A stretch of DNA of 61,145 nt. Source: a virus (Duplodnaviria; Caudoviricetes). A program made the position numbers and the translations under genes. How positions within the stretch are numbered: position 1 is the stretch's first letter; each line of letters begins with the position of its first letter. Shown piece after piece: positions 26,173-42,417 of this stretch. The stretch covers positions 1-61,145 of IMG/VR virus record IMGVR_UViG_3300022920_000542. The stretch is one strand, 5' to 3'. Below the pieces are notes generated by a model, which saw nothing but the letters and a program-made list of their open reading frames with translations, ran no database searches and was not told the DNA's origin.

Positions 26173-27726
26173 ATGACTAAACCCAAGTGTACAAAAACAT
26201 CATGCTTGTATCCAGAAACGTGTGACTGGAATAATATGTGCATGACAGAGCAACTTGAAATAAGTAATTCTGTAAGACTTAATGAAACCTCAATTGATAA
26301 GATTGGGGTTCTTTTGTGTCATGGGTTTCTATCTAAACACGAACAAATGGTCCCACTAAGCAATTATATATACGAAGCCCTTGGGTGGGAAACTAGTTTA
26401 GTTGAATTAACCGGACATGGATATGATCAAGAAAACATTGCAACTGCAACTTGGAACAACTGGGTTGATGATGTAAAAGAAAAGTATTTAAGTTTAAGGC
26501 AACGATGTGATAAAGTTTATATGATTGGGTTCTCGTTGGGTGGTTGTGTATCTGCATATGTTGCTAGTTTAAAAAGCATACGACCTGAAGGTTTGATTAT
26601 TGTAAATGGTGTGTTTGGTGTTAAGAATGTTTTCAACAAACTTCTTCCTGGTGTAATGATCTACAACAAAGTATGCAGTAAATTGAAACTTCAAAAGATT
26701 ATGTTGGAATCGATAACCAACGATAGTGAAGATCCTGATTTGAATCAACCTCTTGTGAATTTGTCGGCAACAAACGAATTGCGTAAAATGTCTAAAATAG
26801 CAGGTACTATATTACAAGATGTTAAGTGTCCTACATTTTTAATTCAAGAATACAATGATCCAACTGTATTTTATGGAAGTGGAAAACGAGCATTCAAAAA
26901 ACTAGGTGCTACTTTCAAACGATTTTATACAACCAAGTTAAATACTCATCTTACGATTCATGACAAAGGACTTGAGTGTAGTGTGTTTTGTAAAGTCTTG
27001 GAATTTTTAAAAGATGTTGAAAAGGATGATTTCGTTAATATTGCTCATCGTGGAGCAAGTGGTGATTTTACTGAAAACACCCTGCAGGCATTTGAAGAAG
27101 CAATTGATCGTGGTTGTGATGCAATTGAATTTGATGTACAAATTATAGGAAGTCGTTTTAGAATATTTCACGACCGTAACTTTCATAGAATGTTTGGGAT
27201 TGATATTGAAACAAATAAAATATCGGAAGCTGAGGTATCTAAATTAGTTTATCCGAACCTTGAGAAACTTCCTACCTTACAAGAAGCACTTGATTGTATA
27301 AATGGTCGTGTTGATGTTAACATTGAAGTCAAAAGTAATCAAGTTGCTGTAAACATTGCTAATATAGCAGAATCATATTTAGGAAAACCAGAGTGGAAAA
27401 ACAAAAGCATTACTTTATCGTGTTTTAGTTTTGCTACTATAAACACATTGTATAGATTCCGTAAAAAAGCAAAACTTTCATATTTGTTGTACGACCAGTA
27501 TTGTAATTTAGAAGAAATCAAACGACTTAAAGATGATTATATTAAATACAACATTCATTCGTTGAATCTTCCACTTGAAAGTATTTCCAAGCAAATCATT
27601 GAATATTGCAACGACAACAATATTAGAATATATGTATATACCGTAAATGAAATCAAACAAATTCGTTATTTACGAGAGTTGGGTGTGAGTGGTGTATTTA
27701 CTGACTTTCCTAAATTGATAAGATAA
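26173..27726 (+). CDS. fusion of alpha/beta-hydrolase (carboxylesterase/monoacylglycerol lipase-like) and glycerophosphodiester phosphodiesterase
   Basis: N-terminal CHGF, LTGHG, GFSLGG nucleophile elbow, DPTV, H; C-terminal IAHRGAS..ENTL.AF, IEFDV, FHD, NIEVK, YTVN, GVFTDFP. Confidence 0.88.
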   Translation: MTKPKCTKTSCLYPETCDWNNMCMTEQLEISNSVRLNETSIDKIGVLLCHGFLSKHEQMVPLSNYIYEALGWETSLVELTGHGYDQENIATATWNNWVDDVKEKYLSLRQRCDKVYMIGFSLGGCVSAYVASLKSIRPEGLIIVNGVFGVKNVFNKLLPGVMIYNKVCSKLKLQKIMLESITNDSEDPDLNQPLVNLSATNELRKMSKIAGTILQDVKCPTFLIQEYNDPTVFYGSGKRAFKKLGATFKRFYTTKLNTHLTIHDKGLECSVFCKVLEFLKDVEKDDFVNIAHRGASGDFTENTLQAFEEAIDRGCDAIEFDVQIIGSRFRIFHDRNFHRMFGIDIETNKISEAEVSKLVYPNLEKLPTLQEALDCINGRVDVNIEVKSNQVAVNIANIAESYLGKPEWKNKSITLSCFSFATINTLYRFRKKAKLSYLLYDQYCNLEEIKRLKDDYIKYNIHSLNLPLESISKQIIEYCNDNNIRIYVYTVNEIKQIRYLRELGVSGVFTDFPKLIR

Positions 27727-27753
27727 AGTTGTTTTAATATATATTTATTCATC

Positions 27754-29310
27754 ATGGATGTCGTTGAACATTATCTATCGGAGATTGATTTAACCGATGT
27801 TTCTTCTGAGTTAAGAACTTTGTTGAGTGAAGCTGCCACTACAAATGCCTCGGATGCCGAAGTTGCTATATGTGTTGCGTATAACATCAAACAAGGTAAG
27901 AACGAGGTAGATGCTCTTAAATCGGCAGGTGTAGACAAATCAACCTGGAAAAAGATTAAAGCAAACAAATTAGTATATAGTGCAGGTAAAAAAGTTGCGA
28001 AAGGATTAAAGAACATCGGAGGTACTTTAATATGGTCAGGAAAAACATCTGCATCTACATTTTACAAAAACGGAAAAAAAGAAGCATCAAAAGCAGACTT
28101 AATAGGAAACAATCGTAATCGGTTATCGGTGAAGCAAGCAAGTGGTTCTGCAAAAAGTGCTCAACTTGTTAGTGGAACTTCGGGTGAAGCAAGAGGAGTA
28201 TTTGAGTTTGCAGTTAAACATCTTGAAGCAAGTGGTGGAAAACTGACATCTGATTCTGAGATTAAAGAGTTGTTTGATATTTTTGAAAAAGAAATGTCAA
28301 AAGCAATTCGTACTGATATAAATGTGGAAGTCGGAAAAGGTAAAAAGGATTTTCGTGATTGGGTTATATCTGACAGTGGTCGTTATGATGTTGTTAAGTC
28401 AAAAGCAAAGCAAGCAACGGACGATGAAATAAAACGACACATTCGTGCAGAGTTGGCAGTTAATAATGCTATATCAAATGCAGATGCTCCAAAACTTCAA
28501 GGAGATTACATCAAAGGAGTTAAACCATTAACTGCAAAGCAAATCAGCAAAATGCGTTCTGATTATATTTCATCGGATATGAAAATTGGTGATGTTACAA
28601 TTGCTAAAGATTATCTTGAAAAAGCAAATGTACCTTCTGATTTATTAACCAAGGAAGCACTTAGAACTCAAATAATGGATTTGATTGATGTGGCATTAAA
28701 AGCAGATACTTGGAAAACTCGTATTCGTGAGATTATGCAAAACAACGCAGAGCTTAAAAAGTGGATTGTTTATGAAGCTGCAAGTGGTCTTGGTAAGTTT
28801 ACAGGTAAAGCATCTAAAGGAGGAAATTACTTTGGTGATAATACTGCGGTTGCTAACAAGATATTGGTATTTGATTCTAAAGGTGTAAAAAAAGTACACG
28901 ATTTATTCAAGTGGTCACAAAGCAATGGTAATCTTTGTAATAATGTAGATATTAGTTTCAAAGGAAGTGGTCGCAGAAAATTCATTAAGTTTGGATTGGC
29001 TGCTGAATCTATTGATAGCAATATAGATAACATCATAAACGAAGAATACAACAAACTTGAAGATCAATTGAAACTGCTTAACGAAGGTAAAATTTGGGAC
29101 ACCATAAAAAGTGGATTTGATTCTGCGTCAACTTGGGTTAAATCATCGTATGATAAAATTGAAGTTTTACTTTTGCAATTTTATGAAAAGGTTGTAAAGG
29201 GAGTTCTTGATTACTTTTGGGAACTATTTCAAAAAGGATTGAGTCCCGTACTTGAAAAAATGGGATTCATTATGGAAGGTGTATGTTCGTTATCTGTTCC
29301 TGTTTGGTAA
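27754..29310 (+). CDS. putative PD-(D/E)XK-fold nuclease-like late protein, paralog 1
   Basis: DAEVAI, SKADL, RLSVKQ, AQLVSG...EA, YEAASG.GKF; shares MD(V/I)VEHY start and amphipathic C-terminus with the next gene. Confidence 0.55.
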   Translation: MDVVEHYLSEIDLTDVSSELRTLLSEAATTNASDAEVAICVAYNIKQGKNEVDALKSAGVDKSTWKKIKANKLVYSAGKKVAKGLKNIGGTLIWSGKTSASTFYKNGKKEASKADLIGNNRNRLSVKQASGSAKSAQLVSGTSGEARGVFEFAVKHLEASGGKLTSDSEIKELFDIFEKEMSKAIRTDINVEVGKGKKDFRDWVISDSGRYDVVKSKAKQATDDEIKRHIRAELAVNNAISNADAPKLQGDYIKGVKPLTAKQISKMRSDYISSDMKIGDVTIAKDYLEKANVPSDLLTKEALRTQIMDLIDVALKADTWKTRIREIMQNNAELKKWIVYEAASGLGKFTGKASKGGNYFGDNTAVANKILVFDSKGVKKVHDLFKWSQSNGNLCNNVDISFKGSGRRKFIKFGLAAESIDSNIDNIINEEYNKLEDQLKLLNEGKIWDTIKSGFDSASTWVKSSYDKIEVLLLQFYEKVVKGVLDYFWELFQKGLSPVLEKMGFIMEGVCSLSVPVW

Positions 29311-29339
29311 TAAAACATCTTTGATATATATTTATTGTC

Positions 29340-30965
29340 GTGGATATAGTAGAACATTATATTAAAAACATAGATACTTCTTTTGAAGTTGATGATATAT
29401 TATGTGAACTTGCATTGCACGATTTGTTTAAACGAGATAACAAGCAACGATTCATTGACAAAGTTGATGGTAACGAAGTTCTTGATGATAAAAACAATCC
29501 TCTTAAAATTAAAAGTGGTACTACTGCTTTATGGAAAGATATGAAGAAGCAACTTTTATCTGCAACAGACAAAGATGGAATTGCTGATTGGGGTGGTCGT
29601 GGTGAAACCAAGATAAAACAACTATTTGGTGTTCCTATTAGTAAAATAGGCAAATCTCAGAATGATATGAGTGGGGGAGCAAGTAGTGGAAATCCAAGTG
29701 GAGAAGATTGGGAAGCAATGATTGCTATTGGTCTTGCTACTATTGAAAAGAAAGACCCATCAAAAGAAGTACCTGACGAATGGTCAAGAATAGATCGAAA
29801 GGGTTTTTGGGATAGTGAATTTAATCGTGACATCGCAGAAAAGATTGCAAGTGCATTTAAGAAAAACGGATATGCACCCATTTCGCAAACTGGTAGTGGA
29901 AAGGGTGGTGTGGGTGTATCAAGTGAATGGGGAGAGATATTCAAAGAATACGGAAGTGGTAGTATGAACAAAACTCCAAAGACTGACCTCAAGGGAGGTT
30001 CAAAGAAAATTTCATTAAAAAAAGCAGGTGGTTCTCAAGCAATGAGTGCCAAGCAAGCTGAAGCAGCTTCTACATTCGGAGCAGCTGTTAGTATGTATGG
30101 TAAAAATTATCCAAGTAGTGTAAATAAAATCTTAGATTCATTTAAGAGTTCAATTCTTGATTTATCTGAAAGTGGTTACCGTGGTAGTATATCTGCTCTT
30201 GAAAAAGACATCAACGCAAGTGAAGGTGATCCAAAGAAAATGAAGAAACTTAAACCAGTAGTTGATAATTTGAAGCAAGCAAGAGATGATGGTAAGTTTA
30301 TTACATCTGAAATGAATCGTTTGTTTTTAAGTGATTCAAAATTCAAAGATTTATTTGTATTTGAAGCTGCTACCGGTTCTGTTAAGTTTGGTGATTCTTC
30401 GGAAAGTCGTGCTGATACTATGGTGGAAATTGATACTGATAGTGGTAAAATTACATCGCAATACAAAATGAATTCTCCAAGTGATATTTCTTCGTTAGCA
30501 AGTCAATACAAGTTTTATTTGTCATTCAAAACAAGTGGTAATAGCACTCCTTATATGGCACTTAGAGGAAATATGGAACAAGACCCAAAGAAGGTTACTG
30601 CGTGGATGAAGAAGCAGGTTGTAGAAAATAAAAACTTTTCAACGATATGTCCAACATTTTCTACTATTATTCAAGAAGGTTTCAAACAAGACGATTTTGG
30701 AAAAAGATTATTAACTGAATCAAGTTTCCAAAATCTCAATGAGTGGCAATTACTTAAAAAAGTTCGTGACGGAATAACATCTGTTAGCAACAAGGTAAAA
30801 GACCGTTTTGTTAAAATATGGAATTGGATTTCCGAACGAGTTTCTGTTGCATTTGATTGGTTAAAGAAGCAAGGAGCAAAAGCACTTGTTTATCTTCAAA
30901 AGTTTTTTGGAGTGAAACTTGACAAGTGTGGAATAAATGGAAAGATAGAACTTTTCTCTGCTTAA
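29340..30965 (+). CDS. putative PD-(D/E)XK-fold nuclease-like late protein, paralog 2
   Basis: DWEAMI, TPKTDL, KISLKK, SQAMSA...EA, FEAATG.VKF; GTG start behind ATATTTAT. Confidence 0.55.
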   Translation: MDIVEHYIKNIDTSFEVDDILCELALHDLFKRDNKQRFIDKVDGNEVLDDKNNPLKIKSGTTALWKDMKKQLLSATDKDGIADWGGRGETKIKQLFGVPISKIGKSQNDMSGGASSGNPSGEDWEAMIAIGLATIEKKDPSKEVPDEWSRIDRKGFWDSEFNRDIAEKIASAFKKNGYAPISQTGSGKGGVGVSSEWGEIFKEYGSGSMNKTPKTDLKGGSKKISLKKAGGSQAMSAKQAEAASTFGAAVSMYGKNYPSSVNKILDSFKSSILDLSESGYRGSISALEKDINASEGDPKKMKKLKPVVDNLKQARDDGKFITSEMNRLFLSDSKFKDLFVFEAATGSVKFGDSSESRADTMVEIDTDSGKITSQYKMNSPSDISSLASQYKFYLSFKTSGNSTPYMALRGNMEQDPKKVTAWMKKQVVENKNFSTICPTFSTIIQEGFKQDDFGKRLLTESSFQNLNEWQLLKKVRDGITSVSNKVKDRFVKIWNWISERVSVAFDWLKKQGAKALVYLQKFFGVKLDKCGINGKIELFSA

Positions 30966-32543
30966 TTACTTCTTGTAAAACACAAAGATAGGTTCGTACT
31001 TGTGCAACTCTCCGTTTATTTGACAACAATTTTTTATCGTTGTTCTATCTCCACGCATTGTTGCCATAAGCATTTTAAGAGTTTCAACATACTCAAGACC
31101 GTATTCGTGTAAAATATTTTTGCTATCTTCTTCAAGTGGTATATATCCACCATCGTGTGTGATGTCCGCAATATTCCACAATAAATACCTGTCGTTTCTT
31201 AAATACTGAGATGCAGTTCTTAATGTGGGACGAAGAAAGTTTTCTTTCCAATCTTCATACGATGGAAACTTCTTGAAACTCTGAGATTCATCTGCTGAAT
31301 ATTGCTCTCTATTAAAATATGGTGGACTTGTAAATACTAAATCAAATGTTCCTTTGTATTTTTCAAATTCTTTGTTTCGGTGAATGACCTCACTTCCGTC
31401 TTGAAACAAGTCGTGTGTATTGCGATGACCAAAAAACGGATTACCACCATTGGTTTTGTCGTTGAAAAAATCTGCTACATATTCGTATCTTGATTTATTG
31501 AGTTCATTTATATAGTTGTCTGTATTTGGGTCTGTTCCAACATAATGTATTTGACGATCATCTATACTCATAGCACCAAGTATTCTTCCTCCCCAACCTG
31601 CACTTGGATCATATACGGTGAGATCATTTTTGTTTTCAATGTGATCTGTATATTTTTGATAAACAAACTTTGCAGTTAGTGGTGGAAAGTTTACGGCAGG
31701 ATGTCTTCCGAGTCCAAGACGAAGTGCTTCCATTGCGGATGGAAAGATAGTTGATGTTTTGTTGTAGTAACGAACACTAAATTTATATTGAGTTTCATCA
31801 AGTGTATCAAGTTTATCAAAATCTGTATTAAAGTCTGTTGTTCGTTCTAAATTGCTGATATTGTTTTGTTCAAGCAAACCTTCTTTATGCAACTGAAGTA
31901 TTTGTTGAGCAGATAACAATAAATGATTTTCTTCATAGTCTTCAAACTTTCTTTCGGTGAAAAGTTCAATGATCCAAAAGTCATTGTTGGGATATAAATG
32001 TTTTTCTGCTATAAAGTTTCTAATCCAAGTTTCTCCATCGTTTGTTGGATATGGTACTTCATCATCATTTTTTCTTATGGTTTTTCCGTGGGCAAAAAAA
32101 GCATCTCGTCTGATGGTTCTTCTCATTGTAACATGGAAACTATCTCGTTTATCTGGATCAACAAAGTAATCGTAAATGCTTTCTGAGTGTGTACCTGTTT
32201 GTAATGCCATTTTTGTTTTAAGCATTGTTGGAAAAAACTGATCAATTACGGTTGCAAACTTGTTAAAGTTTTTAATGATTGTGTTTGTTTTGTCAAGTTC
32301 ATCGTAATGTAGAAACTTGCTAACATCATATCGTTGTAGTTTGTTAAATTGAGCAATAATGTCTTTTTCTATTTTACCACTTCTCGGTGGAATTCCACTT
32401 TTATCCCATGTAGTAACAATATAATCTCGTAAATCATCCAACCAAATTTCAAGTTCTTCTTTACTTTTTAACAACAACTGATGAAAGGTGATGTTTTGAT
32501 CCCACTCTACGAGGTTGTTTTTCTCGTAAAAATATTTCTTCAT
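30966..32543 (-). CDS. SPPY-type DNA amino-methyltransferase-like protein, paralog B
   Basis: PAVNFPPLTAK, YDPSAGWGGR, GTDPN, FTSPPYFNREQYS, WNIAD, YEPIFVF. Start MKKYF overlaps the upstream stop (ATGA). Confidence 0.88.
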   Translation of the reverse strand: MKKYFYEKNNLVEWDQNITFHQLLLKSKEELEIWLDDLRDYIVTTWDKSGIPPRSGKIEKDIIAQFNKLQRYDVSKFLHYDELDKTNTIIKNFNKFATVIDQFFPTMLKTKMALQTGTHSESIYDYFVDPDKRDSFHVTMRRTIRRDAFFAHGKTIRKNDDEVPYPTNDGETWIRNFIAEKHLYPNNDFWIIELFTERKFEDYEENHLLLSAQQILQLHKEGLLEQNNISNLERTTDFNTDFDKLDTLDETQYKFSVRYYNKTSTIFPSAMEALRLGLGRHPAVNFPPLTAKFVYQKYTDHIENKNDLTVYDPSAGWGGRILGAMSIDDRQIHYVGTDPNTDNYINELNKSRYEYVADFFNDKTNGGNPFFGHRNTHDLFQDGSEVIHRNKEFEKYKGTFDLVFTSPPYFNREQYSADESQSFKKFPSYEDWKENFLRPTLRTASQYLRNDRYLLWNIADITHDGGYIPLEEDSKNILHEYGLEYVETLKMLMATMRGDRTTIKNCCQINGELHKYEPIFVFYKK

Positions 32544-34129
32544 TTCTTGTAAAACACAAAGATAGGTTCGTACTTTTGCAACTCTCCGTTTATCTTGCAA
32601 CAATTCTTAACCGTTTCTGCTTTAACACCACGCATTGTTGTCATAAGCATTTTAAGAGTTTCTACATACTCAAGTCCGTATTCCGCAAGAATATCACGAC
32701 TATCTTTTTCTAATGGCATAAATCCGTCTCCGTCTGCGATGTCTGCGATATTCCAAAGTAGATATCTATCGTTCTTCAAATACTCGGCAGCCGTTTTCAA
32801 AGTAGGACGAAGAAAGTTGTCTCTCCAATCTGCATACTCTGGAAACTTTTTGAAACTCTGAGATTCATCTGCTGAATATTGTTCACGATTAAAATAGGGT
32901 GGACTTGTAAAAACCAAATCAAGTTTGCCTTTATATTTTTGGAAACTTGGATTATTAGAAATTTCTTCACTTCCATTTTGATAAACATCGTATGTGTTAC
33001 GATGACCAAAAAACGGATTACCTCCGTTTGTTTTATCATTAAAGAAGTCGGCAAGATATTCGTAACGACTTTTACCAAGTTCATCAATATAATTGTCGGT
33101 GTTTGGGTCAGTTCCGATATAATGAATCTGACGATCATGTACTGACATAGCACCAAGAATACGACCACCCCATCCTGCACTTGGATCATATATATGAAGA
33201 TTGCTTTTATCTTGAATGTGATCTGTGTACTTCTGATAAATGTACTTTGCAGTCAACGGAGGAAAGTTTACTGCTGGTTGACTCAAACCCAACTTAAATG
33301 CTTCCATTGCTGATGGAAAGATTCTTGAGTTTTTGTCGTAATATCTAATGCTAAAACGAAACTCTACTTCTTTGTCATCTTCTAATATAACATCATTTAT
33401 ATTTTCAATATCATCACCAAAATTTGCAGTTCTTTCTAAATTTCTGATGTTGTTGATTTCAAGCAAACCTTCTTTGTGTAATTTCTTTATTTGCTTTGCC
33501 GTAAGCATCAAACTACTTTCTTCGTATGAATCAAACTTCTTTTCGGTAAACAACTCAATAATCCAAAAGTCATTGTGTGGATGAAGATGTTTTTCTTTAA
33601 CGAAATTACGAATCCAATCTTCTGCGTTTTCAGTTGGACACGGAACGTCATAATCATTTTTCTTGATTGTTCTTCCGTGAGCATAAAACGAATCTCTTCG
33701 TACCGTTCGTCTCATACAGGTGTGGAAACTTTCTCGTTTCTCTGGATTAGCAAAGCAATCGTAAACACTCCAAGATGTATGCTTACTTGAACCTATTTTA
33801 GTTTTAAGCATTGTTGGAAAAAACTGATCAACTACGGTTGCGAACTTGTTAAAGTTTTTGACGATGGTATTTGTTCCGTCCATTTCGTCTTTGTGCTGAA
33901 ACTTATATACATTGTATCCAGACAATTTATTTAAGTTGGCAATAATACCCTTTTCGTTTTTGCCTGTTCTTGGTGGGAGGCCTTTGTTGTCCCATGTATC
34001 TACAATATAAGTTCTAAGTTCATCAATCCACTTGGTTAACTCTGTACCATTCTTCTGAAGAAGTTCGTGGAATGTAATATTAACTCTACATTCTGCAAGA
34101 TTGTTTTTTTCGTAAAAGTATTTTTTCAT
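32540..34129 (-). CDS. SPPY-type DNA amino-methyltransferase-like protein, paralog A
   Basis: Same motifs as paralog B over the full length; ATGA overlap with the PLP-enzyme stop. Confidence 0.88.
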   Translation of the reverse strand: MKKYFYEKNNLAECRVNITFHELLQKNGTELTKWIDELRTYIVDTWDNKGLPPRTGKNEKGIIANLNKLSGYNVYKFQHKDEMDGTNTIVKNFNKFATVVDQFFPTMLKTKIGSSKHTSWSVYDCFANPEKRESFHTCMRRTVRRDSFYAHGRTIKKNDYDVPCPTENAEDWIRNFVKEKHLHPHNDFWIIELFTEKKFDSYEESSLMLTAKQIKKLHKEGLLEINNIRNLERTANFGDDIENINDVILEDDKEVEFRFSIRYYDKNSRIFPSAMEAFKLGLSQPAVNFPPLTAKYIYQKYTDHIQDKSNLHIYDPSAGWGGRILGAMSVHDRQIHYIGTDPNTDNYIDELGKSRYEYLADFFNDKTNGGNPFFGHRNTYDVYQNGSEEISNNPSFQKYKGKLDLVFTSPPYFNREQYSADESQSFKKFPEYADWRDNFLRPTLKTAAEYLKNDRYLLWNIADIADGDGFMPLEKDSRDILAEYGLEYVETLKMLMTTMRGVKAETVKNCCKINGELQKYEPIFVFYKK

Positions 34130-35055
34130 TGTCTCCAAAAGTGCGATGCACAAGCACCACCTAGATTATAGAATAGTACATCTCCTTCCAATTTGCAACC
34201 ATTTTCTTTTAACCAATCCCATGCTTTTTTGTCCCAATTACCATTACAAGGAAACGGTGTATATACTTGATCCAGATCATCTGCAAACTCATGTGGGGTT
34301 TCGTGGATTTCGGTTACGTGGTTATGCTTTCCGTTTTTTGTATAGAATACACCCCACGATGTTAACTTAGTTTCAATGGAAGACTCTGATGCAGTTGTTA
34401 TGAGATGTGCTTTCTTTATGTCACTCTGATGTAATTGAAAATGTCTTTCTCCGAAAAAACCCTGAAGTAGTCCTGATGGTGTTACTCCACTACCTGCATT
34501 TACAACAAGGTGTTTAATGTTTTTGTCTGAGTTCTCTTCAAGTAGAGTTTGCATTCGTGTTTTGAAATAACCTACATAATCTGGATGATCAAACGCATAT
34601 GGCATCATTTGATATCCGTTTTTGTTTGCAAGAATATTAACCGAACTTGTTACTATACTAAGAATGTTTGGTTTCATTGGGACCAACTCTGCCCCAAGAC
34701 TTTCTATTTTTTCAAGTGCTTTTTTGGGATAGTCTTTCGTATTAGGGTATGCAATCTTAATATCAAATCCAAGTTCACGACCCATATATGCCAATGCCCA
34801 ACCACTATAACTTACAGCAACTGACAGATGGATTATAGGTTTGTTTCTTGTAAGTTTTTCAACCGAGTATGTCTGATTCTTGTTATTGTCATCAGTAAAT
34901 GCCCCATCACTTTCAAGGACTCTACGAATGCCTTCTAACTTTGCCCACGGTGGTAAATCTAAATTTCCGTTTAGCAAATCGTCACGTTTTACGTAAACTT
35001 TTTTTTCTCCACATAAATGTTCTTCGAGTGGAGTATCAAAATTAAAGGAGAGCAT
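34126..35055 (-). CDS. PLP-dependent enzyme, fold type II (ACC deaminase/D-cysteine desulfhydrase/TrpB-like)
   Basis: VYVKRDDL...WAKL (PLP lysine region), SYSGWALA, VVNAGSGVT phosphate loop, WDKKAW, LFYNLGG. Confidence 0.82.
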   Translation of the reverse strand: MLSFNFDTPLEEHLCGEKKVYVKRDDLLNGNLDLPPWAKLEGIRRVLESDGAFTDDNNKNQTYSVEKLTRNKPIIHLSVAVSYSGWALAYMGRELGFDIKIAYPNTKDYPKKALEKIESLGAELVPMKPNILSIVTSSVNILANKNGYQMMPYAFDHPDYVGYFKTRMQTLLEENSDKNIKHLVVNAGSGVTPSGLLQGFFGERHFQLHQSDIKKAHLITTASESSIETKLTSWGVFYTKNGKHNHVTEIHETPHEFADDLDQVYTPFPCNGNWDKKAWDWLKENGCKLEGDVLFYNLGGACASHFWRQ

Positions 35056-36247
35056 CTAAGTGTTTTTGTTCACATTCAATATCCATTATTACATGGAAAC
35101 GATAATTCTCTGAGTTGTTTACAACCCAATGAGGTTTTCTTTTATCCATATAATAATATTCTCCCGTTTTCAAACGGAAGTCTTCTGTTTCACCATCAAG
35201 TCCTACTTGAGTGAATATACATTCTTCGTCAACTTGAATGGGAAAGTGAATTCTTAATGAACGACCAAGTTTTGGTCCATTCTTTGTTTGGTAATTCCAA
35301 CTATCGTGACCAATATCGGTATGTCTTTGAATCACTCCGTTTTTTGGTTCTACTCTAGTAATAACCAACCAAGTACACTTTTCAACTGATGTAATTTCAT
35401 TTACAACCTTTGCAAGTTTAGGAATTTTTTCAAGAATGGTATAATCAATTTTACTATTTGGATTAATCGGAACAACTTCAACTGTGTACCAAGTTTTTTC
35501 GGGTCCTCCATAGTTTCCATTGATTCCATCGTAACTCCAAGGATTAACTGCTTCTTTGTAATCTTTAATTTCTTGAACAAGTTCTGCACATTCTTTTTTG
35601 TTGATAGAATTTATCTTCATTTTCTGGATTTTGATGTCTTCATACTTTGAAACACCGGGTTGTTTCAACTCACCACTATACCAAATACCACGAACCTCAG
35701 AACCAACCGCAGTTACTTTACTGCTTAACCAAGTTGCTTTTATTGCTTTGCAAAAATCTTTATCTTGTTTCAGTTCCATATTAACATCTGTTAAAAACAA
35801 ATCGCACTTGGTATCAAACAAATCATTTTCTAATGTTCGTTTACTTTCAATATCTGCTATTAAGTCTTCTAGGTGTCCATCAACATAAGCAAATCTTGTT
35901 ATCTGTAAATCACCGGTCTTGATTGTTCCTACTACATCTTCTGCTACATCTTTTATTCCACGATTAGATTTACATTCTGAACAAATATATGCCCACAAAA
36001 GTTTGCCATAAAATGTTTTATGAAAGAATCTACCTTTTTGATCTGCTTCATATAAATTCTTCCAGTTTATTTTTTTGAATGGATCAAGGTTTGGTTCTTT
36101 GCAGGCAATGGGTTGATTTTTCCATTGTGGTGGAACATCATACTCTTGGAAGAATTTTGCGTACTCTTTATACTTGTCTTTTATTTCATCTGAAATTTCG
36201 TCTTTGACTTTTACTTTTTTTGTTTTCTTTTCTTTTACTGAAACCAT
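35042..36247 (-). CDS. 2OG-Fe(II) oxygenase (Asp/Asn beta-hydroxylase-like) with an N-terminal domain, possibly degenerate GNAT
   Basis: C-terminal IQRHTD...RIHFPI...[15 protein letters not shown]...RFHVIMD (HxD...H triad plus 2OG-binding R). Confidence 0.8.
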
Positions 36248-37044
36248 TTGTTTTCTTGCCTTTCTAAAATTGCATTATTCACTTTATTTTCTAAACAATT
36301 CTCTATAATTTTTTTTAAGTTTTCGTGATCGTTTTTTTCCCCAAGGAAATCCCACGATGTGTGGTTGTAATAAAATGCTTTGTTTGTTTGTAGTAATTCT
36401 TCACGTAAATCTGTTCCTAGTGTATCTATATGTGCGGTTTTTATATTACCACTGTTTATTAAGGATAGCAAGGCTGTATTATCGTGGCAATCTGATCTAG
36501 ATATTGATACAAAGTTTATGTTTCTGCAATTTTCAAATAATTTTTCATTGAACATATTTTTCGTGGAATCATTTAATGATACCGTTGCAATAACATTCTT
36601 TATATTAGATGATGACATAATCTGTTGAATTGTTTCTTCATCTGTTTTTGAATCAACAACCGAAATAAAATGTTCAACGATACCTTGAACTTTTTTAGAA
36701 ATGACACCATTACCAAATATAACACAATCACCGTCTACAAGTTTATCTTTGATCCAATAAGCACATCCGTTTGTATTCGGACTAGTTGCAACTACACCTA
36801 TATTATGCTTTTTGCACAACTTTAAGTTTACTGAATCTACTCCATGACCACGGTGAACCACCCACTCAAGGTTTGGATACCGATCAAGTGTAGTTTTTCC
36901 TACTTTACTGAACTTAGTTGAGATAACCTTAATTTCATTTGAAGGAATTCCGTCTGCTTTTTGCATTGCACCAAGAATATGGGCATCGGGAATAAACTTC
37001 TCTATATCAGCAAGATCGGATTTATCTTTTATTAAGGTATTCAT
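36235..37044 (-). CDS. D-2-hydroxyacid dehydrogenase-like protein (shortened, divergent)
   Basis: [20 protein letters not shown]...[34 protein letters not shown]. Confidence 0.72.
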
Positions 37045-37055
37045 TTTTATACTCT

Positions 37056-37084
37056 ATACTAAACGAATACTCATCAAATATCAA
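37056..37084 (-). promoter_or_regulatory. sigma70-like internal promoter
   Basis: TTGATA-17 nt-TAGTAT, 11 nt before the ATG at 37044. Confidence 0.55.
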
Positions 37085-37098
37085 GTATATAATATAAT

Positions 37099-38745
37099 TT
37101 ATGCCAACTCGGTAACTTTGATTCTCGCAGATACATGACCAAGATTTCTATTTAGATATTCTGTTGGAACTTTGTTTTCAATGAACAACTCGTTAAAGTA
37201 TTGATCAATAGTATCTTGTTCTTTTTTAAGATAATCTGTATGGCATCCTTGTTGAAATGTTTTTTTGGGTCTCCAGAGCAACTCATCTGAAATTTCTCCT
37301 TCAAATGCTTTTCGCAAAACATATTTCATTATGTTTCCTTTGCCATCTGCTTCATCTCTGTATCTGGTTGGAATTCTTAAACCAAAATCAATAACTTCTT
37401 TATTAAGAAACGGAGTTCTTAGTTCTACCTTACCACCATACATCATTGCTTTGTTGGTTCTAATAAGATTATTTTTGTGAAGATTGTTTATGAGGTTAAC
37501 TCGTTTTTGATGCCAAGCAAGTGGATCGGGCCAACAAAATCTTTTGACATCTCCATAACTAGCAAATATTTCATCTGCTCCTTCTCCACCAAATACGACT
37601 TTATATCCTTTGTCTCGGATTTCCCAAGATAGAAATAATTGAGCAACTGCGGGTGATACTTGTGTCCATTTGTGAGTTTCTGATGCCCATATACTTTCTT
37701 TTAGATTATTCTGAATATCTTCCTTACTTACATTAACTTCGTGCAACCTAACACCCAATTCCTTTGATGCAATTTTAGCATAATACAAATCATCTTTCAA
37801 AGTTTGCTTACGATTAGATGTTACATTTACAACAAATGCTTCAATGTTTGGATTTTTCTTTTTAAGTAAATAAGTAATAATAGTGCTATCTATACCACCA
37901 CTCAAAATTGTACAAATCGGAGTATCACTTATTAGTTCATCATCAACTGCTTGTTCCAACCGTTTTCTAAACTCGGATGCATAGTAATCAATTCCTTTAT
38001 CTTCCTTTTCAAATAATTTTAAGTCTGTTTCTGATCGTGTGTATAAAGTTGGATTCTCTGGATTAAACTCTGGTTTGAAATCGTTCCATCGTTTAATTTC
38101 ACAATTTGTTACTCCAATTAAATTTTCGGAAACCGTTACAATTGTTCCAGGTTCTACTATTTTTATTTTTTCCACTTCACCTTTTGGTGCTTTGCGATTT
38201 CTATCAACATTGAAAAATTTAAGATTTGGTTTTGCTGATTGTAGTCCTTTAACTTCACTTGAAAAAACAATCTTTTCATTTTCAAATGAATAGTACAATG
38301 GAAGTCTTCCGATAAAGTCTCTTCCTAGTGTTAACTGATTTCGTTCTACATCATAAAAAGCAAAACAAAACATTCCATCAAGATTTTTCATTGCTTCTAA
38401 AATATTATCACGATTATCTATCAAGTAATAAAGCAACAACTCTGAATCACTTCGTTCAGTCTTAAAATTATATTTCTTTCTAAGTTTGTTATTAAACTTT
38501 CTAAAAAATGGTTTCCACATTTCTCCGTTGAATGCCAGCACAAACTTTTCATTCTCTGAAATAAGTGGTTGATTTGCTGACTCTGATAAATCTTGTATAG
38601 ATAAACGATTATGACTCATATAAAAATCATTCTTCTCAAAATGAAATATAACATTACCATCTGTTCCACGATGCATAATTGAAGCAAGACCATTCTTGAC
38701 TTCTTGTATATCGTTAAAATTATTTCCGCCTAATATACCGCACAT
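37099..38745 (-). CDS. asnB: asparagine synthetase B-like glutamine amidotransferase
   Basis: Ntn start MCGI, HRG.D, HNRLSI.D, ANQP, FNGE, RD.IG..PLYY, LSGGIDS, GEGADEIF..Y, ELRTPFL, KYVLR.AF, RPK. Confidence 0.92.
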   Translation of the reverse strand: MCGILGGNNFNDIQEVKNGLASIMHRGTDGNVIFHFEKNDFYMSHNRLSIQDLSESANQPLISENEKFVLAFNGEMWKPFFRKFNNKLRKKYNFKTERSDSELLLYYLIDNRDNILEAMKNLDGMFCFAFYDVERNQLTLGRDFIGRLPLYYSFENEKIVFSSEVKGLQSAKPNLKFFNVDRNRKAPKGEVEKIKIVEPGTIVTVSENLIGVTNCEIKRWNDFKPEFNPENPTLYTRSETDLKLFEKEDKGIDYYASEFRKRLEQAVDDELISDTPICTILSGGIDSTIITYLLKKKNPNIEAFVVNVTSNRKQTLKDDLYYAKIASKELGVRLHEVNVSKEDIQNNLKESIWASETHKWTQVSPAVAQLFLSWEIRDKGYKVVFGGEGADEIFASYGDVKRFCWPDPLAWHQKRVNLINNLHKNNLIRTNKAMMYGGKVELRTPFLNKEVIDFGLRIPTRYRDEADGKGNIMKYVLRKAFEGEISDELLWRPKKTFQQGCHTDYLKKEQDTIDQYFNELFIENKVPTEYLNRNLGHVSARIKVTELA

Positions 38746-38755
38746 TATAGGATAT

Positions 38756-38784
38756 ATTATAGTGTAATTATTGTTTTAGGTCAA
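38756..38784 (-). promoter_or_regulatory. consensus sigma70 promoter heading the asnB-like gene run
   Basis: TTGACC-17 nt-TATAAT, 10 nt before the ATG. Confidence 0.78.
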
Positions 38785-39690
38785 TTACTTTCCTGCAACT
38801 ATTTTAGCAATATAATCTTCCAACTTTATTTTTGCTTCCCATCCAAGGTGCTGATAGGTTAATGATGGAATTGCTTTTCCATAAAATCGTTCACCACGAC
38901 GTTCTGGAATCATAATGTGTTTGTGATTAAACATTTTTGCTACATCAATGATTTTATGTGGAACTCCTGTACCAAGAGGATATTCACCTTGTTGTCCTTT
39001 TTCGGCAGCCAACACCACACCACTTACGATGTCGTTGATGTGAGTAAAATCTCTTGATTGTTTACCTGGTTCTACGACTGTAAGTGGTTCTCCGTTTGCA
39101 TATTGTTCTTCAAAGATTCCCAGTACGGTTGCATAATCACCTGTTCTAACTTGTCCGGGTCCGTAAGCATTATAGAAATATGTAATTTCAAATTTAAGAT
39201 CAAACCAATCTGCATAATTGTTGATAAGTTCAACCATTTTTGCTTTCATCCAAGCATACGGAGAAAGATTTTCGTCTTTGCCATCGTTTCCGAATTTACT
39301 TGAACTTGCTGAGTAAATTAACTTTGCCTTTTTTGATATACAATAATCAAGAACCATTTTTGTTCCTTGCATATTGTAGTCCCAACAATTGTCAAATCCA
39401 TCAAAACTTGTTACTATTCTTGAAAACTCACCGAAATGAAAAACAACCTCGGGTTCAAATACATCAGCAATATCCGACTTTGTGTTACTCGCATCAAAAT
39501 TTTTCGGAATCAAGTTCTGAGTATCCTTAACTATATATGTCACCTGTTTGCTTTTGATATGATTGCTTTTGCAACCACTACTATAATTGTCAATAGACAC
39601 AATTTCTATATTCTTATACTTGCGTATAAGTTTGCGTATAAGTGCAGTTCCAACGAATCCTGCACCTCCTGTTATTAATACCTTGTTCAT
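38785..39690 (-). CDS. NAD-dependent nucleotide-sugar epimerase/dehydratase (extended SDR)
   Basis: ITGGAGFVG, YSASSS, SPYAWMK (YxxxK), FYNAYGP, QSRDFTHI.D. Confidence 0.92.
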   Translation of the reverse strand: MNKVLITGGAGFVGTALIRKLIRKYKNIEIVSIDNYSSGCKSNHIKSKQVTYIVKDTQNLIPKNFDASNTKSDIADVFEPEVVFHFGEFSRIVTSFDGFDNCWDYNMQGTKMVLDYCISKKAKLIYSASSSKFGNDGKDENLSPYAWMKAKMVELINNYADWFDLKFEITYFYNAYGPGQVRTGDYATVLGIFEEQYANGEPLTVVEPGKQSRDFTHINDIVSGVVLAAEKGQQGEYPLGTGVPHKIIDVAKMFNHKHIMIPERRGERFYGKAIPSLTYQHLGWEAKIKLEDYIAKIVAGK

Positions 39691-39706
39691 GTTTATATAT
39701 ATGGAC

Positions 39707-40114
39707 TTACTTCTTTTCTTTCAACCCAGTCAAATCAGATGAACTTCTTATTTTGTCGCCGAGACCATCAATCATTTCAATGTTGTGTTTCTTACACACA
39801 ACACTTTCAGGAACTTCACCTGTGCTTCTGTCTCCACCATTTGCGAAGATGTCGGGTTTAATTGCATCAAGGGAAGCACATACACTTTTGTCTTGATCAA
39901 TGCTGAGAAACACTTCATCAACAATTTTAAGTGCTTCTACGATTTTTACTCTATCTGCGTCATCCATGAATGGTTTGCCTTTTTTAAGAACACATTGATG
40001 ATTGTTGTTTACAATAACAACAAGACGATCACCGAGTTGTTTTGCCATTTCTAAATACTCCAGATGTCCTACATGAATAGGATCAAAATATCCACTAACT
40101 GCTACTGTTTTCAT
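39707..40114 (-). CDS. cytidylyl/adenylyltransferase (RfaE-II/TagD-like)
   Basis: AVSGYFDPIHVGH, IVNN, FANGGDR, KIRSSS. Start at MKTVA. Confidence 0.88.
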   Translation of the reverse strand: MKTVAVSGYFDPIHVGHLEYLEMAKQLGDRLVVIVNNNHQCVLKKGKPFMDDADRVKIVEALKIVDEVFLSIDQDKSVCASLDAIKPDIFANGGDRSTGEVPESVVCKKHNIEMIDGLGDKIRSSSDLTGLKEKK

Positions 40115-40118
40115 AATG

Positions 40119-40490
40119 TTACTGCGATTTGTGTTTTTCCGGACGATCATAATCGTCTTGAACACGAACAATATCGTCTTCACCAAAATAAGTTCCTGTT
40201 TGAACTTCCACTAAAATCATATCTTCTGACTCACTTGGATTTGCCATACGATGTTTTGCTCCAAGTGGAATCAATACAGTTTCACCTGCTTTGTAATCTT
40301 CCGTAACATCATCTAAAGTTATTCGTGCAACACCACTAACAACTGTCCATGCTTCTTGTCGTTTGTGATGATACTGATAACTAAGTCTTTGTCCTGGTTT
40401 CACAAAGATACGTTTAACTTTGCAGTAATCTGCGTCTAAGAGAATTTCATAATTTCCCCAAGGTCTAATGCTTTCGTCTGTTTCACTCAT
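40119..40490 (-). CDS. cupin, mannose-6-phosphate isomerase type II C-terminal-like
   Basis: RPWG.Y, KVKRI.V.PGQRLS.QYH..R.E.W, HR..NP, EVQTG.YFGEDDIVR..DDY.R. Confidence 0.9.
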   Translation of the reverse strand: MSETDESIRPWGNYEILLDADYCKVKRIFVKPGQRLSYQYHHKRQEAWTVVSGVARITLDDVTEDYKAGETVLIPLGAKHRMANPSESEDMILVEVQTGTYFGEDDIVRVQDDYDRPEKHKSQ

Positions 40491-40494
40491 AATT

Positions 40495-40623
40495 TTATCC
40501 CCACCTATCTGCTAAATCCTGTGTAGATATTTGATTGTTGTTTTTATTTTGTTTAATAATTTTTAATTTATTCGGTAAAATTATTGTACTATTTTTTATG
40601 ATTTTAGTAAAGTTAATTTTCAT
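40495..40623 (-). CDS. 42 aa hypothetical protein
   Basis: MKINFTKIIKNSTIILPNKLKIIKQNKNNNQISTQDLADRWG; ATGA overlap with the DHH gene; fills the gap. Not in the ORF track. Confidence 0.35.
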   Translation of the reverse strand: MKINFTKIIKNSTIILPNKLKIIKQNKNNNQISTQDLADRWG

Positions 40624-41573
40624 TTTCCATAAACTCCTTCAAACTTTTCAATAAAGTTATTCAATTCCGACTTTGGCAATTCATTAACACCAGCTGCTTT
40701 CTCTCTTCCTCCTCCCGTTGGAAACTGCAATGCAAGTTTGCTTGCTCCGTATGGATTTGTTTTTGGTGAACGTATACTTACACGATAGTTTTCTTCGTCT
40801 ATAAATGTCAATATCACAAATGCTTTATCTGGATCATCGGTTGTTTGTTGATTACTATATATACCCGAATAACGAACTGATGCTTTGGTATCAGGAAGTA
40901 ATATCACTTTACCTGTGTTGGTATCGTGTAAAATTTCAGAAGAACTTAATTCTGATTTATCCGAAATCATCTGTGTATGAATCTTGTTGTAGATTTCCGA
41001 TTTTTTTCTGTATTGAAACGGAGAGATGTATTGATGCAAATCAAGATACACTTCGTTTGGATTAACTGTTAAATCTGACAATTCAGTTCCGTATCCGTTG
41101 TAGTTTAATGTTTCACCAATTTCTTTAAGTTCCAACATTATCATTTCACTGAAGTTGGGATTAAGTTTTTCTGCTTGTTCGTGTAGATTGTCTCCATATG
41201 CACCACATATAGTCCACGGCCTGTGTAATCCATCTACGTACTTATCAACTAAAATGTTTGTGCAACAATTTGGGTCTGTGTCTACCTTTATTGAAAAGTT
41301 TTCACCAAGATTGATTTCACCTGGTTCGTGGTGATCAAACCAAGTTACACGATTATTATTATCAAGTACATCGTTGATATAGTCTTTATTAGACAACAAT
41401 GATATATCAAAAACAGTAAGTGTTGAGTTTTTAATATCAACTGCGTGTCTTAATAGTTTTACATCTCGTTTAACTCCTGTGAAAACTTCACTTTTTTGTG
41501 GAAATTGCAAACGATATTGATGCAAACTGATTATACCATCTGCATCTCCGTTGAAAAAATCGTAGTACTTCAT
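40620..41573 (-). CDS. DHH-family phosphoesterase
   Basis: FNGDADG, VFDIS, WFDHH, YGDNL, VSIRSP, GGGR..AAG. Confidence 0.85.
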   Translation of the reverse strand: MKYYDFFNGDADGIISLHQYRLQFPQKSEVFTGVKRDVKLLRHAVDIKNSTLTVFDISLLSNKDYINDVLDNNNRVTWFDHHEPGEINLGENFSIKVDTDPNCCTNILVDKYVDGLHRPWTICGAYGDNLHEQAEKLNPNFSEMIMLELKEIGETLNYNGYGTELSDLTVNPNEVYLDLHQYISPFQYRKKSEIYNKIHTQMISDKSELSSSEILHDTNTGKVILLPDTKASVRYSGIYSNQQTTDDPDKAFVILTFIDEENYRVSIRSPKTNPYGASKLALQFPTGGGREKAAGVNELPKSELNNFIEKFEGVYGK

Positions 41574-41574
41574 T

Positions 41575-42417
41575 TTATTCCTCGGCAACTGCACGACCTT
41601 TATCTGCTTTCCAATCTTGCTCAGGACGATCTATTTCTTCGTTTCTTTTAATTACTGCATCTAAAATCGGTGATTCAATACCATTTTCTTTTGCAAAATT
41701 TGCTAATGCATTTGTGTCTTTCGGAAAACAAGTTCCACCAAATCCTCTTTTACCGTCATGTCCAGGTACTTTAGTATGACCTGTGCCGATTCTTGTATCC
41801 TGTGTTGCGATACAACGCACGTTTTCATAATCAATACCCACCTCTGAGCAAATGCTTTCTAGTTCATTGAAGAAACCAACCTTAACACTAAGAAACACGT
41901 TCTTTAAATATTTTATCATTTCTGCTTCACTTGGTTTGCACTGAATTACTTCTTTGTTAACAACCGAACCACTTCCGTTGTTATATGCCAACTCAAACAT
42001 ACGTTTCATTTTTTCATATAAAAAAGGATCAGTAGAACCAAGTATCCATTGGTTACAATTCTTAAAATCATCTTCCCAATTTTTCTCGGTGAGGAATTCC
42101 GGCATAAAATTAACATCAAGTTCTTCACTTGTTCCAGGTGGCACGGTTGATCGGAGGACAATGTACTTACTATCATCTATTTCTTGTATTTCTTCACATA
42201 CTGAACGAACAATATCAAGATTTGCACTTCCGTCTGAATTCATGGGTGTGGGAACTGCAACGAAAATAATTTCGGACTCCTCTACGAATGTTTCAATATC
42301 CAATGTTTTAGGATCTCTCTTTTCGGGAACTACATCCCATACTAATACTTCTACGTGTGGTTTAAGCAATGTCATTGCATGACCCACGAAACCATTACCA
42401 ACTACTCCAATCTTCAT
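41575..42417 (-). CDS. UDP-glucose/GDP-mannose dehydrogenase family, lacking the C-terminal domain
   Basis: GNGFVG, FVAVPTP, RSTVPPGT, PEFL.E, AEMIKY..N.FL, GFGGTCFPKD. Confidence 0.88.
   Translation of the reverse strand: MKIGVVGNGFVGHAMTLLKPHVEVLVWDVVPEKRDPKTLDIETFVEESEIIFVAVPTPMNSDGSANLDIVRSVCEEIQEIDDSKYIVLRSTVPPGTSEELDVNFMPEFLTEKNWEDDFKNCNQWILGSTDPFLYEKMKRMFELAYNNGSGSVVNKEVIQCKPSEAEMIKYLKNVFLSVKVGFFNELESICSEVGIDYENVRCIATQDTRIGTGHTKVPGHDGKRGFGGTCFPKDTNALANFAKENGIESPILDAVIKRNEEIDRPEQDWKADKGRAVAEE

Follow-up and report, generated by a model that had tools for sequence, protein, structure and literature searches.

Six genes lying head to tail on one strand of an uncultured viral genome fragment raise the question of what an amidotransferase, a dehydrogenase, an oxygenase, a pyridoxal phosphate (PLP) enzyme and two proteins with methyltransferase motifs could be making together. 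The window, i.e. the whole stretch of DNA analysed here, is the IMG/VR virus record IMGVR_UViG_3300022920_000542 (61,145 bases, with an estimated completeness of about 26%), and the co-oriented genes of the cassette occupy positions 30966-38745 of its minus strand. In order of transcription they encode an AsnB-like glutamine-dependent amidotransferase (AsnB), a 2-hydroxyacid-dehydrogenase-like oxidoreductase (DH), an oxygenase of the cupin fold, a PLP enzyme, and two paralogous proteins with a methyltransferase (MT) fold, MT1 and MT2. Judged by family membership, conserved catalytic residues, gene neighbourhoods and domain fusions, which are the basis of the whole reading, the region is probably a module with which an uncultured T4-like phage hypermodifies its own DNA bases, following a route that has not yet been described. 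The initial annotation of this DNA had placed the genes in a DNA-modification pathway and not in an amino-acid pathway; this is very probably correct, given the gp52-type PLP enzyme, the co-occurrence of the families across contigs, and the fusions of MT, cupin and PLP domains.

The PLP enzyme, its neighbours and its fusions

The PLP protein scores above the cut-off of Pfam PALP (38.6 bits), and in a tblastn search of 50,697 phage records its only matches are in 40 M6-like Pseudomonas phages, where the matched gene is that of M6 gp52. The BLASTP alignment with M6 gp52 (63.9 bits, E 2e-16, 24% identity) extends over residues 7-299 against 5-277, and by this measure the protein is a full-length gp52-type homolog. 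M6 gp52 is a PLP-dependent decarboxylase that converts DNA-borne Calpha-glycinylthymidine (Calpha-GlyT) to 5-aminoethyl-dU, and its K36 has been named as the likely internal-aldimine (Schiff-base) lysine (Lee et al., PMC8989533). Residue K39 of the window protein (within PPWAKLEG) aligns with K36 and is invariant across 12 sequences representing both clades of the PLP family, and the C-terminal motif PFPCN..WD.K.W.WL is common to the window protein and M6 gp52. The second, divergent clade is characterised by the motifs VVRDDLL..G.SKIRF, PPFPS..YD.K.W and FWNVG, and its member in relatives without the AsnB cassette is a gene of 275 aa that immediately precedes MT1. Among solved structures, sequence searches with the PLP protein reach E 0.02 at best. 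An exhaustive profile search with the 12 sequences of both clades recovered 1933 representatives at E<=0.001, and all members found come from viruses or metagenomes; when the PLP alignment was used to scan representative genomes of bacteria and archaea, a scan whose reach is limited by its peptide patterns, there were 73 pattern matches, none of which was confirmed. We propose that the substrate of the PLP protein is an amino-acid moiety that is attached to a DNA base and has a primary amine.

Scanning with the PLP alignment yielded 79 loci, which were annotated using custom profiles built from fetched sequences; 30 of these loci have at least 6 kb on both sides of the PLP gene (full-flank loci). 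An MT domain lies near the PLP gene at 52 of the 79 loci and at 29 of the 30 full-flank loci (adjacent in 9), and AsnB at 64 and 28, respectively (adjacent in 17). A gene resembling thymidylate synthase (TS-like) is found nearby at 39 loci (18 full-flank), DH at 24 (12 full-flank), and the cupin at 16 (9 full-flank). The full-flank counts for AsnB and DH refer to a distance of at most 6 kb from the PLP gene. When loci were anchored on the MT gene, PLP was present at 27 of 62, and at 10 of the 11 with at least 8 kb on both sides, the exception being a distant MT. The initial annotation had named co-occurrence of these families across phage genomes as a check on its proposal, and the association is indeed seen in many contigs and in at least six gene orders: AsnB-DH-cupin-PLP-MT, MT-AsnB-x-x-DH-cupin-PLP, MT-TS-AsnB-PLP, TS-AsnB-PLP-...-MT-PolB-clamp-MT, MT-PLP-DH-MT-x-AsnB, and PolB-MT-PLP-DH-AsnB-cupin. 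Unlike counts of loci, different gene orders are independent events. The surroundings include genes for ribonucleotide reductase (RNR) subunits, a DnaB-like helicase, the DNA polymerase PolB, the clamp and the clamp loader. A further 29 loci were found, 24 of which carry cupin-PLP-MT without AsnB, DH or a TS-like gene.

Of the other recurrent neighbours, proteins of 387, 146, 701, 543, 442, 344 and 156 aa match nothing in Pfam, and others match unrelated families (RecA and Cpn60). In some cassettes (L069 4465-6070, L072 1768-3873), the 387-, 146- and 701-aa proteins, which have no Pfam match, are inserted between AsnB and DH, and may be further tailoring enzymes.

Twelve close relatives of MT1 share 87-98% identity with it. 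Four of them are accompanied by AsnB-DH-cupin-PLP, six by an alternative cassette that consists of a cupin, a 156-aa protein and a divergent-clade PLP enzyme, and two by neither, while MT2 is present in three (L001, L002 and L005). The six genes are therefore not one indivisible set.

Some members of the PLP family are fused to other domains of the module. Among the best 150 of the 1933 representatives, 21 are at least 380 residues long, and 12 of the 150 carry MT and PLP domains in one polypeptide according to the custom profiles. These 12 comprise five MT-PLP, three PLP-MT, two PLP(split)-MT and two MT-cupin-PLP proteins (P0259 and P0310); in addition, there is one cupin-PLP protein (P0270). 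A word-index search had found no longer PLP forms, and the fusions were then revealed by the exhaustive profile search. The fusion sequences share the MT1 motifs FPP..AK, DP.AGWGGR, TSPPYF and EP.FVF, and Pfam, run on ten chosen fusions, identifies N6_N4_Mtase in eight, Asp_Arg_Hydrox in three and YunG in two. As both domain orders are present, the fusion arose more than once, and the joining of MT, cupin and PLP domains implies that the three act in one pathway on one substrate. MT, cupin and PLP thus form one functional unit, the core of the module, with AsnB and DH being frequent add-ons that are accessory to it.

Some members of the PLP family have other partners. P0270 and P0285 are fused to a YunG-family domain and not to an MT domain, and P0288 contains a different type of DNA methylase, whose DPFAGG and SCPPY motifs are separated by the PLP domain; the N-terminus of P0288 looks ParB-like by eye, which the Pfam scan did not confirm. 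In a distant lineage, at one locus of a 177-kb record that is 100% complete (L054 689-6715 and 13771-14940, record G003), TS-like, AsnB and PLP genes are followed by a dUTPase/dCTP-deaminase-like gene, a gene of the S-adenosylmethionine (SAM) lyase family and a short MT paralog, and a SAM synthetase gene is found a few kb further on. With such neighbours, the module seems to be set in surroundings that are strongly devoted to SAM chemistry.

The methyltransferase-fold and tailoring proteins

Both MT proteins read TSPPYF and DPSAGWGG. The SPPY half of the SPPY/FxGxG signature assigned by the initial annotation is thus present in both, but the FxGxG half is not, motif I being DPSAGWGG. TSPPYF and DPSAGWGGR are invariant in 36 MT homologs, in which the D341 motif is also conserved; we take TSPPYF to be motif IV, (D/N/S)PP(Y/F), and DPSAGWGGR to be the glycine-rich SAM motif I. 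Against Pfam N6_N4_Mtase (PF01555), MT1 and MT2 score 22.7 and 21.9 bits, below the cut-off of 26.7 bits, and the alignment covers only the motif-IV region. No solved chain matches MT1 by sequence at E<=1. In the AlphaFold2 (AF2) model of MT1 (predicted local distance difference test score (pLDDT) 82.8), the best fold matches of the MT domain are Trm11 (Z 15.4, root-mean-square deviation 2.8 over 178 residues), TrmN (Z 14.9) and Trm14 (Z 14.1), with PrmC and METTL5 also among the matches and a Foldseek E of 1.6e-7. The domain is accordingly modelled as a class-I methyltransferase fold that resembles the amino-methyltransferases. A weak match to HemK was also seen, and the proteins of phage isolates that come nearest in sequence, which are distant relatives, bear the annotation DNA methyltransferase.

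For the N-terminal domain of MT1 no match was found: the best Foldseek hits are at E 0.6 in the PDB and E 0.16 in BFVD, the best VIA-wide Z is 5.2, and an Atlas feature search returned only unnamed viral clusters at 0.84 or below. The mean pLDDT of this domain is 70, and a new fold is therefore not demonstrated. MT1 and MT2 are 69% identical overall, the N-terminal 285 residues (64%) being more diverged than the MT domain (79%), and MT2 is a recent lineage-specific duplicate of MT1. Homologs of MT1 number 2030 and come from marine and freshwater metagenomes. Elsewhere in the window, a 423-aa paralog is 32% identical to an MT1 ortholog over 214 residues (E 1.3e-24), with an N6_N4_Mtase score (26.1 bits) just below the cut-off.

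The family assignments that the initial annotation had made by eye for the amidotransferase, dehydrogenase, 2-oxoglutarate (2OG) oxygenase and PLP proteins are borne out by Pfam scores above cut-off. The cupin matches Asp_Arg_Hydrox with 35.9 bits (cut-off 22.6), and its motifs RH[TS]D, RKPH and R.H..D are invariant in 16 sequences, including the cupins of the alternative cassette; HxD..H and the arginine would be the metal and 2OG ligands. Its N-terminal part of about 260 aa has no recognised fold, no solved structure was matched by sequence, and among phage isolates it matches two Mycobacterium phage records over 30% of its length. DH matches 2-Hacid_dh_C (34.8 bits) and 2-Hacid_dh (34.4 bits), and G111, G113, R183, D207 and H228 are invariant in its family. 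Its weak points are a degenerate nucleotide motif (GNGVIS, compared to GxGxxG), its short length (269 aa) and a best solved relative at E 0.009.

AsnB matches Pfam Asn_synthase (1.1e-51) as well as GATase_6/7, and carries both MCGILGG, with the Cys2 nucleophile, and the PP-loop LSGGIDST. It scores 280.8 bits against TIGR01536 (cut-off 267.1) and 279.8 against the asnB equivalog NF006949 (cut-off 499), and its best solved relative is E. coli AsnB (1ct9, 1.2e-47). Fifteen records of phage isolates match at E<=1e-5, none with this cassette, and S-B43 is not among them. CmoY of cyanophage S-B43, a homolog of asparagine synthetase, joins glycine to the 5-carboxymethylcytosine of DNA, and for a large sub-cluster of CmoY ligases with the AsnB glutaminase domain amidation via glutamine-derived ammonia has been predicted (PMC12783734). 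By analogy, we propose that the AsnB-like protein is an accessory tailoring enzyme that amidates a carboxylate of the base-borne group. At five loci (L077, L078, L079, L084 and L086), the place of AsnB is taken by a 308-aa protein that has the PP-loop domain alone and no glutaminase (e.g. L077 7075-8001), which recalls the glycine-ligating type of CmoY and not the ammonia-using type; this protein has no match among phage records at E<=1e-3.

Entry chemistry, proposed route and competing explanations

The phage routes considered here, for which enzymes have been named, start from a hydroxymethyl or hydroxy pyrimidine followed by a kinase and a transferase (PMC8989533; PMC13326640), from carboxy-SAM (Cx-SAM; PMC12783734), or from a charged tRNA (PMC13219725). 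The 5-hydroxymethyl-deoxyuridine (5-hmdU) DNA kinase (PF18748) was found in none of five records, one of which is 100% complete, nor was the amino-acid:DNA transferase (PF18724) found in any of the five. CmoA (TIGR00740) is also missing from all five, two of them being 98-100% complete, and Cx-SAM could be supplied by a host CmoA. No TS-like gene, the candidate dUMP hydroxymethylase, was found in the window or in four relatives of 66-84% completeness; in the five records covered by this search it came up in one distant lineage only. The TS-like genes of distant lineages, which stand beside AsnB, have a conserved PC motif. As no other entry enzyme was found, the MT-fold protein is the sole remaining candidate for group transfer in the core.

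A methyl group cannot be the substrate of a PLP enzyme. The tailoring families would each suit one group of an alpha-amino acid, the PLP enzyme its amine, AsnB its carboxylate, DH a keto or hydroxy group and the Asp/Asn hydroxylase its beta C-H. Taken together, the exclusion of a methyl substrate and the fit of the tailoring families to an amino-acid side chain make an MT fold that passes on a SAM-derived group larger than methyl the most economical reading. The MT-fold protein would place this group on the exocyclic amino group of a flipped-out base, the PLP enzyme would process its alpha-amino-acid end (its only characterised relatives being decarboxylases), and the oxygenase would hydroxylate the side chain. 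In the lineage of the window, AsnB would convert a carboxylate to an amide, and DH would interconvert keto and hydroxy groups. The likely purpose is to shield phage DNA from host nucleases. The initial annotation had suggested that the MT fold might transfer another SAM-derived group in place of methyl, for which CmoX and Cx-SAM are a published precedent (PMC12783734); for the present module we infer the target atom (N6 of adenine or N4 of cytosine) and every chemical step.

Among SAM-derived groups larger than methyl, aminocarboxypropyl would be the best fit. A more specific version, which we put forward tentatively and regard as possible but rather unlikely in its exact form, is that the MT-fold proteins do not methylate at all and transfer the 3-amino-3-carboxypropyl group of SAM to the exocyclic amino group of a DNA base. 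The PLP enzyme would then decarboxylate this group to aminopropyl or deaminate it to a keto acid, the oxygenase would hydroxylate the chain, DH would reduce the keto acid, and AsnB would amidate the carboxylate.

Several observations weigh against a DNA hypermodification module with this entry step. Its function rests on homology and gene context, and the action of the MT on DNA, or with a group other than methyl, is presumed. The MT domain retains all motifs of an ordinary methyltransferase, its scores for the DNA-methylase family of Pfam are below cut-off, and its closest solved folds are tRNA m2G enzymes. AsnB is above the NCBI cut-off for generic asparagine synthase, and the PLP protein, at 24% identity to gp52, may have a different PLP-dependent activity. 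In this lineage, genes for nucleotide sugars and glycosyltransferases (GTs) directly adjoin the cassette, and two of the relatives (L008 and L009) carry MT1 without an adjoining PLP gene and with an epimerase directly beside it. The loci counted belong to related phages and are not independent samples, and since the genome in the window is so incomplete, entry enzymes could lie elsewhere in it.

The main alternative, although an improbable one in our estimation, keeps the DNA substrate and reverses the order of the steps. Here a TS homolog would first make a pyrimidine with a hydroxymethyl or hydroxy group at C5, on which the side chain is then built, or a transferase would attach the side chain; PLP would expose an amine or AsnB make an amide, and the SPPY methyltransferase would then N-methylate that amine or amide and not the base. 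Entry through a C5-substituted pyrimidine is envisaged for lineages with the TS-like gene, which at 18 of the 30 full-flank loci lies directly upstream of AsnB-PLP. TS homologs start known phage pathways (PMC8989533; PMC13326640). Enzymes with (D/N/S)PPY also methylate a glutamine amide, and both PrmC among the fold matches and the weak HemK match are in keeping with this. However, no TS-like gene was found in the window or in the four relatives of 66-84% completeness, the records searched contain neither the 5-hmdU kinase nor the amino-acid:DNA transferase, and the two-domain MT-PLP fusions (e.g. P0260, 537 aa) combine MT and PLP without a third enzyme to attach the group.

That the cassette belongs with the sugar genes next to it (Table 1) and tailors a glycan is distinctly unlikely. 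On this explanation the two gene sets would together modify a host-surface sugar or a glycan on phage DNA, with AsnB amidating a uronic acid derived from the activity of UDP-glucose dehydrogenase (UGDH). The cassette does directly follow, on the same strand, genes for a short-chain dehydrogenase/reductase (SDR) epimerase, a cytidylyltransferase, a mannose-6-phosphate-isomerase (MPI)-type cupin, UGDH, a GT2 and two GT4 proteins, and at many distant loci the long MT has GT4 or GT2 homologs at a distance of 5-7 kb. AsnB-type amidotransferases and enzymes of the Asp/Arg-hydroxylase family act in lipopolysaccharide synthesis. T4-like phages carry clusters of sugar-nucleotide and GT genes for DNA glycosylation (PMC13326640). 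In other lineages, however, the PLP-AsnB-MT set is surrounded by RNR, PolB and clamp genes and no sugar genes intervene, the only characterised relatives of the PLP protein use DNA-borne amino acids, and the PLP and cupin domains are fused to an MT domain and not to glycosyltransferases.

Very unlikely, in our view, is that MT1 and MT2 are ordinary DNA methyltransferases making m6A or m4C beside unrelated auxiliary metabolic genes, with AsnB making asparagine and the rest serving host metabolism. The MT motifs are those of methyltransferases, AsnB passes TIGR01536, and the phage has other metabolic genes (glutamate dehydrogenase (GDH), phosphomannomutase (PMM) and HSP70) as well as two further clear N6_N4 methylases. 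This explanation does not account for MT domains fused to PLP and cupin domains in both orders, for linkage held through at least six gene orders, for overlaps that amount to translational coupling, or for a PLP family whose members found are all viral or metagenomic, with none confirmed in the peptide-pattern-limited scan of representative genomes. The least probable explanation is that the substrate is RNA, such as phage or host tRNA, or protein: the closest solved MT folds are indeed the tRNA m2G enzymes Trm11, TrmN and Trm14, followed by PrmC and METTL5, and comparable tailoring of side chains occurs on tRNA (wybutosine) and on a translation factor (diphthamide), but the closest phage-isolate relatives of the MT are annotated as DNA methyltransferases, many phages have the MT gene flanked by those for the clamp and the clamp loader within the replication module, and both gp52 and CmoY act on DNA.

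Genomic setting and relation to known systems

The window is a fragment of an uncultured T4-like phage, as its PolB matches the T4-type phrog_262 over the full length (627 bits) and its clamp loader matches phrog_168. The closest isolate, by tblastn against phage records, is Microcystis phage Mel-JY01, with 47.5% identity in PolB, and the cassette region has no match among phage records by megablast. HSP70, a eukaryote-type PMM, a PCNA-like clamp, an RFC-like loader and PolB had suggested an origin from a giant virus (nucleocytoplasmic large DNA virus), which was ruled out by the PHROG and tblastn results.

The arrangement of the cassette (Table 1) agrees with the initial annotation, which had described six co-oriented genes behind a consensus promoter, the last five overlapping. 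AsnB and DH are separated by 54 bp, and the subsequent overlaps are 13 bp (DH/cupin), 14 bp (cupin/PLP), and ATGA (4 bp) for both PLP/MT1 and MT1/MT2. MT1 starts at the ATG at 34129, and an upstream TTG is not the true start. The candidate promoter is the top promoter-like site within 30500-40500; sites of this kind number 32 in that interval compared to 39.4 +/- 6.8 in shuffles, i.e. not above shuffles. Since the phage is T4-like, a sigma-70-type promoter is meaningful here.

Table 1. Positions of the cassette genes and of other features in the window.
Feature	Position	Strand	Basis
AsnB-like glutamine-dependent amidotransferase, 548 aa	37099-38745	-	Pfam Asn_synthase + GATase_6/7
Short D-2-hydroxyacid-dehydrogenase-like oxidoreductase (DH), 269 aa	36235-37044	-	Pfam 2-Hacid_dh_C + 2-Hacid_dh
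Asp/Arg-hydroxylase-family cupin, Fe(II)/2OG oxygenase, 401 aa	35042-36247	-	Pfam Asp_Arg_Hydrox
gp52-type fold-II PLP enzyme (PALP fold), 309 aa	34126-35055	-	Pfam PALP, gp52 homology
MT1, 529 aa: N-terminal domain (~1-285) and predicted class-I amino-methyltransferase-fold domain	32540-34129	-	fold, motifs
MT2, 525 aa, tandem MT1 paralog	30966-32543	-	69% identity to MT1
Third, shorter MT-domain paralog, 423 aa, outside the cluster	20547-21818	-	tblastn to MT1 ortholog
Sigma-70-like candidate promoter TTGACC-17-TATAAT upstream of AsnB	38756-38784	-	11/12 positions
Nucleotide-sugar and glycosyltransferase run	38785-50046	-	
Three successive genes converging on MT2	26173-30965	+	
Free-standing HNH endonuclease gene	23550-24176		HNH 53 bits
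Two N6_N4 DNA methylases beside PolB	13445-15752		111 bits; 75.5 bits
M29 aminopeptidase	12286-13404		
Eukaryote-type phosphomannomutase	5596-6282		
Full-length HSP70	3106-5037		841 bits
Glutamate dehydrogenase	338-1753		

The 11-kb sugar run directly upstream of AsnB also includes a DHHA1-like protein and a beta-helix protein; its GT2 is 752 aa long, and one of its GT4 proteins matches the 'GT4-conflict' family. The T4-like phages RB69 and DLP3 glycosylate their DNA with comparable sets of sugar-nucleotide and GT genes (PMC13326640), and the run in the window may target either DNA or the host surface. The two clear DNA methylases (493 aa and 299 aa) bring the MT-fold genes within the 61-kb window to five. 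On the plus strand, the first of the three genes of about 520 aa each that converge on MT2 encodes an alpha/beta-hydrolase fused to a glycerophosphodiester phosphodiesterase, and for the second and third neither Pfam nor PHROG gave a match; the HNH gene lies between the replication and the hydrolase genes.

Of known systems, the thymidine pathway of phages M6 (Pseudomonas) and ViI (Salmonella) consists of a 5-hydroxymethyluridine DNA kinase (5-HMUDK), an amino-acid:DNA transferase, a radical SAM (rSAM) enzyme and the PLP decarboxylase gp52/gp226, and amidotransferase-type genes of unknown function occur in M6/ViI-type clusters (Lee et al., PMC8989533). The module resembles it in its PLP enzyme, with the same Schiff-base lysine and C-terminal motif as gp52, and in that an amino-acid-like group on the base would be sculpted by tailoring enzymes. 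It differs in that the 5-hmdU kinase, the amino-acid:DNA transferase and, in this lineage, the TS-like gene were not found, and in that PLP is accompanied by, and in places fused with, an SPPY MT-fold domain and an Asp/Asn-hydroxylase-type oxygenase, neither of which is part of M6/ViI as described.

CmoX of Synechococcus phage S-B43 is an MT homolog that uses Cx-SAM to make 5-carboxymethylcytosine in DNA; it is homologous to C5-cytosine methyltransferases and carries R350 and an SPPC motif, and its structure code is given as 8YF3 (PMC12783734). The proposed transfer of a non-methyl SAM-derived group by an MT fold, followed by an amide step by an asparagine-synthetase homolog, is similar to the CmoA/CmoX/CmoY system, which also comes from T4-like aquatic phages; AsnB of the window has a glutaminase domain like the CmoY sub-cluster mentioned above, a likeness at the family level. 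Unlike CmoX, MT1 and MT2 carry SPPY in place of SPPC and the folds found are those of amino-methyltransferases, CmoA was not found in the five records, and the Cmo system, as described, has neither a PLP enzyme nor an oxygenase. The module thus appears to share one family with M6/ViI and one with CmoXY, and to fail the defining features of both.

Two further comparisons can be drawn. In wybutosine synthesis, TYW2 transfers an aminocarboxypropyl group by means of a methyltransferase fold and TYW5 performs a 2OG-dependent hydroxylation, and in diphthamide synthesis aminocarboxypropyl transfer is followed by amidation by the PP-loop enzyme Dph6. The likeness to the module, which is a mechanistic analogy only, lies in the SAM-derived amino-acid side chain, the 2OG hydroxylase and the ATP-dependent amidation of a carboxylate; unlike the module, these pathways target tRNA and a translation factor and have no PLP step. 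Mom of phage Mu hypermodifies N6 of adenine from Gly-tRNA (PMC13219725), and the module as proposed would likewise place an amino-acid-derived group on an exocyclic purine amino group of phage DNA, but Mom is a single GNAT-fold enzyme that uses a charged tRNA, and no homolog of it was seen here, although no search aimed at one was made. No description of a module with AsnB, a gp52-like PLP enzyme and an N6/N4-type MT was found in the literature (open papers and bioRxiv), in line with the initial annotation, which knew of no characterised pathway with exactly this set.

Hypermodifications of phage DNA decide whether it is cut by restriction enzymes, CRISPR nucleases and other defences, and their pathways have supplied new enzymes for DNA labelling. 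The module is widespread, as indicated by the numbers of PLP representatives (1933) and MT1 homologs (2030). Should the MT fold indeed transfer a non-methyl group, DNA hypermodification would have a new entry point and a new entry chemistry, and were that group aminocarboxypropyl, a modification of this type would be a first for DNA. The two-domain MT-PLP fusions would then be self-sufficient enzymes that add a cationic side chain to DNA.

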